Shown here: positions 22,217-22,676 of the stretch, piece after piece | Layout: each line of letters begins with the position of its first letter | How positions within the stretch are numbered: position 1 is the first letter of the stretch | Assembly (NCBI RefSeq): GCF_045037415.1 | Contig: NZ_CP173438.1 | Reading direction: 5' to 3' (one strand) | DNA length: 64,000 nt | From: Escherichia coli | Lineage (GTDB): Bacteria; Pseudomonadota; Gammaproteobacteria; Enterobacterales; Enterobacteriaceae | The notes under the pieces: model-generated | What the model was told of the DNA's origin: nothing | What the model saw: only the letters and a program-made list of their open reading frames with translations | Databases searched by the model: none | Program-made: the position numbers and the translations under genes

Positions 22217-22636
22217 ATGGTCGTTAAAAATGGTCTTGCCTGTGGGATTATGCTTGCTCTTGTCGGTTGTGCTACAAAACCTGTCTCAAATGAACAAGCC
22301 ACTCCTGTTCCTGAAAAACAAATTATCAGTACCGCGTTACTCGAAAAACGAGACGGTACGGGAGAGGTGATCATCAAGCGTGACTCGGGTTTCTTTGGAA
22401 GCGCGTGTTTTTCCCGTGTTTATGTTGATGGTAAAGAGGTGGCAGATTTAGGTACAGCTCAGAAAGTCGTTGTATACCCAACGATTGGTGATCATGTCTT
22501 CAGCGCGTGGCCAAAAGGAGTATGTGGTGGTGGCATGAGCGAACAAGCGGGCAAGGTGACAACAGATCGTACTTTGATGTATCGCATAGGGTATGGATCA
22601 AACGGTGAATATGGAATTCACCCAACCGCGTTTTAA
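22217..22636 (+). CDS. prophage-encoded lipoprotein of unknown function (139 aa, lipobox LVGC), moron adjacent to att site
   Basis: ORF track; signal peptide plus lipobox; own terminator; between tail module and attR. Confidence 0.6.
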   Translation: MVVKNGLACGIMLALVGCATKPVSNEQATPVPEKQIISTALLEKRDGTGEVIIKRDSGFFGSACFSRVYVDGKEVADLGTAQKVVVYPTIGDHVFSAWPKGVCGGGMSEQAGKVTTDRTLMYRIGYGSNGEYGIHPTAF

Positions 22637-22644
22637 TTTGTGTT

Positions 22645-22676
22645 GGGGTATGTGAGTTTTTCTCATACCCCTTTAC
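22645..22676 (+). terminator. intrinsic terminator after lipoprotein gene
   Basis: GGGGTATGTGAG-TTTTT-CTCATACCCC hairpin followed by TTT. Confidence 0.45.

Follow-up and report, generated by a model that had tools for sequence, protein, structure and literature searches.

Lambda Bor is an outer-membrane lipoprotein that provides serum resistance, and T5 Llp and HK022 Cor are outer-membrane exclusion lipoproteins. A moron, in the sense of Juhala and Hendrix, is an independent add-on transcription unit. The first one described was HK97 gp15, a superinfection-exclusion gene in the slot between the tail chaperone and tape measure genes (PMC3594210). Here, we analyzed a lipoprotein gene on a 64,000-nucleotide stretch of Escherichia coli DNA (NCBI RefSeq assembly GCF_045037415.1, contig NZ_CP173438.1), referred to below as the window. 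The gene lies in a prophage, near the attachment site (att) in the tRNA-Leu gene leuZ. By its sequence, it is a new member of a catalogued, widespread, and uncharacterized family, PHROG 890. We tentatively read its product as a protein that may exclude other phages at the cell envelope.

The gene is an intact open reading frame (ORF) of 139 amino acids (aa) with an ATG start, as a sequence-only reading of the window had claimed. The gene and the signals around it are as follows.

22203..22207, plus strand: Shine-Dalgarno sequence GGGAG, 9 nt 5′ of the lipoprotein ATG, read off the sequence.
22217..22636, plus strand: prolipoprotein coding sequence, PHROG 890/DUF2846-like (ORF list, PHROG match, homologues, ratio of nonsynonymous to synonymous substitution rates [dN/dS], AlphaFold2).
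22217..22270, plus strand: predicted signal peptide with lipobox L-V-G-C (translation; conservation of Cys18 in family alignments A1 and A2).
22640..22676, plus strand: stem-loop 3′ of the lipoprotein stop codon, terminator-like with a weak U tract (folding; not called by the consensus scan).

The N-terminus of the protein, MVVKNGLACGIMLALVGC, fits the lipobox pattern [LVI][ASTVI][GAS]C at the end of an N-terminal signal peptide. Residues 15 to 18 are L-V-G-C, Cys18 is the predicted lipid-bearing residue, and the +2 residue is Ala. Cys18 has no exception in alignment A2 (43 sequences) and is nearly invariant in alignment A1 (25 sequences). In E. coli, a lipoprotein with Ala at +2 is sorted to the outer membrane, and from this rule we infer that the protein is targeted there. 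The ORF is a genuine gene rather than a product of chance: the protein matches the PHROG 890 "lipoprotein" profile over its full length (E 2.5e-52, residues 4 to 139 against profile positions 2 to 136 of 136), it has 84 close homologues, and its dN/dS ratios, given below, are those of a coding sequence. Its composition (46% GC, 36% GC at third codon positions [GC3]) differs from that of the tail genes (48 to 50% GC; tape measure GC3, 46%) by a small gap. The gene had also been credited with its own terminator. A strong hairpin does begin four bases past the stop codon (22640-22676, core 22645-22671; −16.4 kcal/mol, z −4.46, with 0 of 200 shuffles as stable). However, the T tract on its 3′ side is TTT only and the consensus scan called no terminator at this hairpin, so that a terminator of its own is plausible yet weaker than was claimed.

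The 84 relatives came from a search of 5.8 billion proteins. Nearly all of them are 136 to 139 aa long, and their source genera include Salmonella, Citrobacter, Klebsiella, Enterobacter, Yersinia, Xenorhabdus, and others. A profile search of representatives at 50% identity returned no fewer than 1464 clusters at a threshold of E ≤ 1e-3, of which 777 remained at E ≤ 1e-10; almost all were of 130 to 145 aa. After the lipobox, the family motifs are A-T-x-P-V, K-R-D-x-G, G-S-x-C, W-P-x-G-x-C-G-G-G-M-S-E, R-I-G-Y-G-S-N-G-D, and a C-terminal P-T-A-F. Among 230 collected members, the lipobox was recognizable in 180 and a C-terminal Phe was present in 184, and most had exactly two cysteines beyond the lipid cysteine. 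From these two conserved cysteines we infer a periplasmic disulfide in the family domain.

The sequence-only reading did not recognize the mature domain. It is recognizable as PHROG 890 and, at a distance, as a DUF2846-like beta-sandwich. AlphaFold2 with the family alignment predicted eight strands with a mean predicted local distance difference test score (pLDDT) of 88.6 and a predicted template modeling (TM) score of 0.82. The AFDB50 neighbors of this model are "Lipoprotein," "DUF2846," and "PEGA" proteins of 135 to 145 aa at TM scores of 0.8 to 0.95; the models labeled DUF2846 matched at TM scores of 0.76 to 0.83, and those labeled DUF2846 or PEGA at TM scores of ∼0.8 and E values of 1e-11 to 1e-15, the fold being a common beta-sandwich with generic matches in the PDB. 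DUF2846 (PF11008) comprises small secreted proteins or lipoproteins of Proteobacteria, which resemble the window protein in size and may have its predicted fold. At the sequence level, 1 of the 25 members of A1 matched PF11008 at 1.9e-6 (P0079, the sole one at E ≤ 1e-3), 4 of 25 did so at E ≤ 0.1, and one relative bears a precomputed PF11008 match; the window protein itself had no Pfam match. The mature domain would thus be a divergent DUF2846-like sandwich of the transthyretin/PEGA type, at best a sister group. A sequence-profile search of the PDB with the window protein gave nothing at E ≤ 10. The fold matches in the PDB, all with TM scores of at most 0.52, were a nuclear magnetic resonance structure of unknown function, the extracellular domain of PepT1, the regulatory domain of carboxypeptidase D, and TssJ, that is, generic immunoglobulin- or transthyretin-like sandwiches that gave no functional lead; the BFVD match, a DUF4352 protein at a TM score of 0.52, gave none either. 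The sole structure paper that names DUF2846 reassigns its protein to DUF4360.

Cargo status in temperate phages

Two lines of evidence support reading the gene as accessory cargo of the moron type, carried at the end of the prophage nearest att. First, a relative of the prophage lacks it. The prophage of E. coli W284, which has tail genes 92% identical to those in the window and is integrated at yodB/zinT, has no lipoprotein gene after gpD; its intact gpD is followed by a tail-fibre-like gene. Second, the family is found in varied slots of unrelated phages that have nothing more in common with this prophage, and its strand is always that of the adjoining phage genes. The slots are as follows.

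Phage HK639: 3′ of the tape measure gene and close to a YafO toxin gene.
HK97-like prophages of Salmonella and Yersinia: between tail chaperone T and the tape measure gene.
mEp390, Fostie, Klebsiella pneumoniae prophages (P0040), Citrobacter, Pseudocitrobacter, and Erwinia: between gpK and gpI (the K-I slot).
Pseudomonas aeruginosa phages (isolates from cystic fibrosis and bronchiectasis), phiAH14a, P. cannabina, and P. protegens: between gpK and gpI.
SSU5-like phage-plasmids: next to a regulator.
Vibrio anguillarum H20-like phages: starting 15 nt past the end of cI, the repressor gene, and on its strand.

Some trends were apparent among these slots. First, all 65 of the 65 classifiable phage records with a homologue were temperate phages, prophages, or phage-plasmids. 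Second, in at least nine lineages the gene is directly 5′ of gpI-gpJ, the host-recognition end of lambda-like tails. The K. pneumoniae prophage copy P0040 was found in 1326 collection blocks. Third, where the K-I slot holds extra cargo (five lineages), this is always on the gpK-lipoprotein side and never on the lipoprotein-gpI side. Finally, the DNA similarity between HK639 and the window is restricted to the lipoprotein coding sequence, with unlike flanks; therefore, no common mobile unit beyond the gene itself is definable.

Two further slots were examined in passing. In a Salmonella prophage (locus L012, 6001-7001), a 173-aa ORF (phrog_16400, E 2e-45) comes next after the lipoprotein gene, which here is in the slot between T and the tape measure gene. 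The two genes have one strong common terminator at 6980-7001 and may form a two-gene cargo unit. In phage HK97, the gap between gpK and gpI (locus L045, 5514-5834) is 321 bp long and contains a short hydrophobic ORF with an annotated terminator at its end; it holds no annotated gene and no lipoprotein remnant. This content means that K-I is a general cargo slot.

The gene was present in 435 of 5426 complete E. coli genomes (∼8%), in 427 of them at ≥99% identity, and the region is 100% identical in many E. coli chromosomes, largely of sequence type 131 (ST131). E. whittamii has the same prophage at leuZ, with a 99% identical lipoprotein. Against this copy the dN/dS ratio was 0.026 at a dS of 0.12, and against the orthologues of Salmonella, Citrobacter, Yersinia, and others, where dN was 0.2 to 0.35 and synonymous sites were saturated, it was at most 0.17. 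The gene is under strong purifying selection (dN/dS, 0.03 to 0.17). In ST131, it is intact and 100% identical while the adjoining gpD-like gene is broken in most genomes. The frames of this neighbor run from 21006 to 21779 (257 aa) and then, as a 54-aa remainder in another frame, to 22050; an intact gene (347 aa) is found in E. whittamii, W284, and a few ST131 genomes with one base different. Because of this frameshift, the ST131 prophage is probably tail-defective. The lipoprotein gene is dispensable, since in strains 81009 and 22272 an ISEc52 element lies inside it at the position corresponding to window 22293-22295 (locus L053, 1497-2746, in 81009). As judged from the sequence, these insertions are a natural knock-out in the ST131 background. 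An IS1 element was also found in strain 23556, in the gpD-like gene at window 21080-21088. The matching "phage" records (vB_EcoM-569R10 and similar ones) are prophage predictions that include yecA and therefore say nothing on whether the prophage is inducible.

Relatives were also found outside prophages. Alignment A2 was too divergent for a genome scan, and A1 was used, which gave 14 species-representative loci; the non-enteric ones among them were not in recognizable prophages. The copy of Nitrosospira multiformis Nl18 (locus L032, 6962-11293) lies upstream of a SIR2-HerA defence pair at a distance of 380 bp (PADLOC E 1e-159 and 2e-259); a pentapeptide-repeat protein and a DnaJ-domain protein are encoded on its opposite side. 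A deltaproteobacterial copy adjoins an AbiGI-like gene (E 3.6e-13, below the curated cut-off), a Methylococcales copy adjoins an HNH endonuclease gene, and the Geomonas and Zoogloea copies have uninformative neighbors. In Pseudomonas the family is sporadic, with 1 to 10 contigs per cluster, and the contigs of distant metagenomic representatives were too short for their neighborhoods to be read. Such a distribution fits an accessory gene that is weakly associated with defence islands. We looked for clear homology to housekeeping lipoproteins and found none, the chromosomal relatives being sporadic and in accessory or defence-island neighborhoods.

Function of the lipoprotein

The sequence-only reading had presented the gene as a moron at the attachment site, in a position classic for genes of lysogenic conversion or superinfection exclusion. 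The cargo part of this stands, given the absence from W284 and the moron slots; for the part on conversion or exclusion, neither homology to a known exclusion protein nor a promoter above chance was found. We favor, tentatively and short of even confidence, the reading that the window lipoprotein is expressed from the prophage and guards the lysogen as an envelope-level phage-exclusion protein. The lipoprotein would be processed by Sec and Lsp to a mature part of 121 residues, a disulfide-containing, eight-stranded beta-sandwich, and its N-terminal lipid would anchor it in the outer membrane, most likely facing the periplasm. It would be the product of a cargo gene passed among temperate phages of Proteobacteria and no part of the virion. 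By binding an envelope component, or the incoming tail tip or tape measure, it would cause adsorption or DNA passage to fail. The logic would be that of Llp, Cor, and the HK97 gp15 moron, with an unrelated fold.

Several observations argue for this reading. First, the family is restricted to temperate elements among phages, is placed in the cI operon in Vibrio phages, and occupies the gp15 slot. Second, its tight linkage to gpI-gpJ mirrors the llp-pb5 and cor-J arrangements, and some of its members have defence-island neighbors. Third, the gene is kept under purifying selection in a decaying prophage. For expression in the lysogen, the direct hint comes from the Vibrio H20-like phages only, where a promoter-like site lies 5′ of cI and a strong canonical terminator follows the lipoprotein gene directly, the two signals delimiting a two-gene cI-lipoprotein unit; for the window copy, such expression is suggested by extension. 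Terminators were found elsewhere as well, and they follow most copies of the gene. A canonical GC hairpin with a T run was present in the 45- to 65-nt gap between the lipoprotein stop and the gpI start in all seven of the seven K-I-slot loci inspected, and HK639 has a strong terminator 36 nt past the lipoprotein gene.

Other observations weigh against exclusion. Upstream of the window gene, the best sigma-70 promoter match was 8/12, equal to the mode of the shuffles, and a consensus scan gave none; likewise, 16 of 17 relatives had no upstream sigma-70 promoter above shuffles, in a consensus search of low power that weak or atypical promoters could escape. Therefore, the gene may simply be transcribed by read-through from the late tail operon. 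The gene is absent from a close relative, as a moron would be, and shows no promoter of its own above chance. HK97-like tail operons often contain terminators anyway, which makes the terminators weak evidence. The window lipoprotein had no match in Pfam (even at E ≤ 10), NCBIfam, or PADLOC, with 0 defence families at E ≤ 1 in PADLOC-DB 2.0, and some relatives are in nonphage chromosomal contexts that have no defence genes nearby. A literature search found no functional study of any member of the PHROG 890/DUF2846 family. Comparison with the sequences of lambda Bor, HK022 Cor, and T5 Llp gave no homology either: with Cor, a BLASTP alignment of 11 residues (E 0.18) and no relation past the signal peptide; with Llp, no BLASTP alignment, and an hhalign alignment of the signal peptide only; and with Bor, a BLASTP E value of 0.30 and no TraT or Bor domain in Pfam. 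Finally, copies that are 65 to 75% identical ride with very different tails, a myovirus tail here and siphovirus tails elsewhere. This fits poorly with a mask for one receptor and better with a generic target.

A broader form of the exclusion reading is speculative, and we consider it improbable. The PHROG 890/DUF2846-like lipoproteins would constitute a new, pan-proteobacterial class of envelope-level anti-phage exclusion proteins, encoded by temperate phages beside their tail-tip genes. From the outer membrane's inner face, they would act on a conserved tail-tip or tape-measure penetration step rather than on one receptor. A generic target of this kind would account for near-identical copies with very different tails and for copies in defence islands.

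Of the alternatives, the one that survives best, although we regard it as rather doubtful, is that the protein is a lysogenic-conversion factor whose benefit to the host is unrelated to phages: it would make the envelope more robust or confer resistance against serum, bile, antimicrobial peptides, or other stresses, as in the case of lambda Bor. Such a role would be consistent with an outer-membrane-type lipoprotein whose gene is fixed in ST131, the pandemic clinical clone, is very frequent in prophages of K. pneumoniae, and has stayed intact in a decaying prophage, and the mEp390 annotation notes a homologue on a Yersinia pestis plasmid. However, besides the lack of homology to Bor and of a TraT or Bor domain noted above, the family is found equally in environmental bacteria and phages (Nitrosospira, Geomonas, Gallionella, Vibrio anguillarum, and plant Pseudomonas), where serum resistance is irrelevant; a more general role in envelope stress may apply.

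It is unlikely that the protein serves the lytic cycle of the phage instead, being transcribed late with the tail genes and acting at or after lysis, for instance by masking the receptors of dying cells, debris, and vesicles, on which progeny would otherwise be wasted. Masking of receptors at lysis to spare progeny has reportedly been ascribed to T5 Llp as well. In nearly all phages the gene is embedded in the tail operon on the same strand, no independent promoter was detectable, and the linkage to gpI-gpJ is tight in many lineages, all of which a late role would explain. Yet the Vibrio phages place the gene in the cI operon, a lysogenic transcript; the phage-plasmid copies are among maintenance and regulatory genes; the gene is found in temperate phages only and in no virulent ones; it is kept intact in ST131 despite the frameshifted gpD of a probably defective prophage; and copies occur outside prophages as well.

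A role in lysis, as the outer-membrane component of an o-spanin or u-spanin type, is highly improbable and was rejected on location, fold, and signal-peptide-only matches: although the protein is a lipoprotein that weakly matches PHROGs of Rz-like spanins (E 0.16 and 0.21) and no Rz/Rz1 pair is recognizable among the lysis genes, these matches are limited to the signal peptide (residues 2 to 34), the model is a folded sandwich of 120 residues with no C-terminal membrane segment, the holin and endolysin genes are 20 kb away in a cassette with its own small lipoprotein gene directly 3′ of the endolysin gene, and the relatives are beside cI or inside tail modules, never in lysis cassettes.

If the lipoprotein does exclude phages, this would matter for phage therapy, since ST131, where the gene is fixed, and K. 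pneumoniae, whose prophages very often carry it, are exactly the targets on which it could narrow the host range of therapeutic phages. It would add a third, structurally unrelated family of outer-membrane exclusion lipoproteins to Llp and Cor, and it would give a first function to a family of at least 1464 clusters (50% identity) and to its DUF2846 relatives. If the benefit is envelope robustness instead, the protein would be a widespread lysogenic-conversion factor. As it is, the window gene is a well-delimited and easily testable candidate for which natural knock-out strains exist.

Surroundings in the prophage

Upstream of the lipoprotein gene is a myovirus-type tail module, and downstream are the phage arm and the host junction. 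The features are as follows.

18551-20191: tape measure gene, tail module.
20188-20616: gpU-like gene, tail module.
20778-21002: tail X gene, tail module.
21006..22050, plus strand: gpD-like gene (late control D), the last tail gene, frameshifted near 21775 (ORF list, sequence).
22637..22856: phage-side arm from the lipoprotein gene to the host junction, AT-rich (40% GC).
22857..22912, plus strand: 3′ 56 nt of tRNA-Leu (leuZ), the host side of att (start of the match to prophage-free genomes; tRNA coordinates of strain Eco-15).
∼22955-22980: tRNA-operon terminator (folding).
23108-23773: yecA, beyond the tRNA-operon terminator.

The gene had been placed between the last tail gene and an att core in leuZ, and this proved correct: the gpD-like gene ends at 22050 and the junction between prophage and host is at 22856/22857, within leuZ, where the match to prophage-free E. 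coli begins. The distance from the lipoprotein stop codon to the junction is 220 bp. The gene order in a prophage-free genome is pgsA, tRNA-Gly, tRNA-Cys, tRNA-Leu, yecA, and window 22857-22912 is the final 56 nt of the 87-nt tRNA-Leu. ARAGORN found no complete tRNA in the window, as expected because the distal end of the prophage sits in leuZ. Two minor features were seen near the junction. A 46-aa ORF on the minus strand (22773-22913) crosses the leuZ remnant and is almost certainly spurious. The sole promoter-like match of the region, TTCATA-16-GATAAT (22791-22818, plus strand), is in the AT-rich phage arm before the tRNA remnant.

A second cargo slot was apparent between the gpU-like and tail X genes (20616-20778, 31% GC). 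Here it contains a minus-strand 44-aa hydrophobic ORF (20624-20758) with no family match; E. whittamii and W284 have an unrelated gene there, of 86 aa and on the minus strand, with the label "superinfection immunity" (phrog_1039, E 2.8e-14). In the lysis cassette, the endolysin gene (1401-1880; TIGR02594 in RefSeq) matched a baseplate hub/tail lysozyme PHROG at E 5.8e-48, far above the endolysin PHROGs. Directly after it is a gene for a 64-aa lipoprotein (1888-2082) with the lipobox L-A-G-C, which may be an unconventional outer-membrane lysis component.

Strain 4/1-1 and the window show three differences in 22.2 kb, including two single-base indels. In the window, the major capsid gene is interrupted by an extra A at 9117 (8670-9125 and 9133-9705), and the absence of a G at 10933 divides a 226-aa head-tail gene in two (10568-10948 and 10945-11247). 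Either the prophage has decayed further at these sites or the indels are errors of the assembly. Farther along the window, between tar and cheR (∼42955-43106), the RefSeq annotation of an identical strain marks a frameshifted fragment of a Tar ligand-binding domain gene; this lineage appears to have lost the chemoreceptor gene tap.

Comparison with described phage proteins

Lambda Bor is a prophage-encoded cargo lipoprotein of the outer membrane, as the window protein is predicted to be; the bor gene differs in being beside the lysis genes and on the opposite strand. HK97 gp15 is likewise a gene added to a phage genome, here within the tail operon and with a terminator of its own, and the Salmonella and Yersinia relatives of the window gene occupy its exact slot. 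However, gp15 is a 62-aa YebO-like inner-membrane protein that is no lipoprotein and has no homology to the window protein. Llp (T5) and Cor (phi80, HK022, and N15) are, as the window protein is, small accessory phage lipoproteins with an outer-membrane-type sorting signal, and the location of HK022 cor after J and of T5 llp beside the pb5 gene parallels the gpI-gpJ linkage of the window family. The differences are that the mature part of the window protein has 121 residues compared to ∼60 in Llp and Cor and that its family, unlike Llp and Cor, occurs far beyond the FhuA-using coliphages. The closest described proteins are the other members of PHROG 890, among them HK639 gp16 (69% identical to the window protein), the "putative lipoprotein" of Vibrio anguillarum H20-like phages (45% for the Vibrio proteins), mEp390 gp17, SSU5_122, and gp83 of Pseudomonas phage phiAH14a. 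The window protein is like these in length, lipobox, the two further cysteines, and the C-terminal PTAF, and its gene differs from theirs only in location, which here is the end of a myovirus-type tail module beside att.

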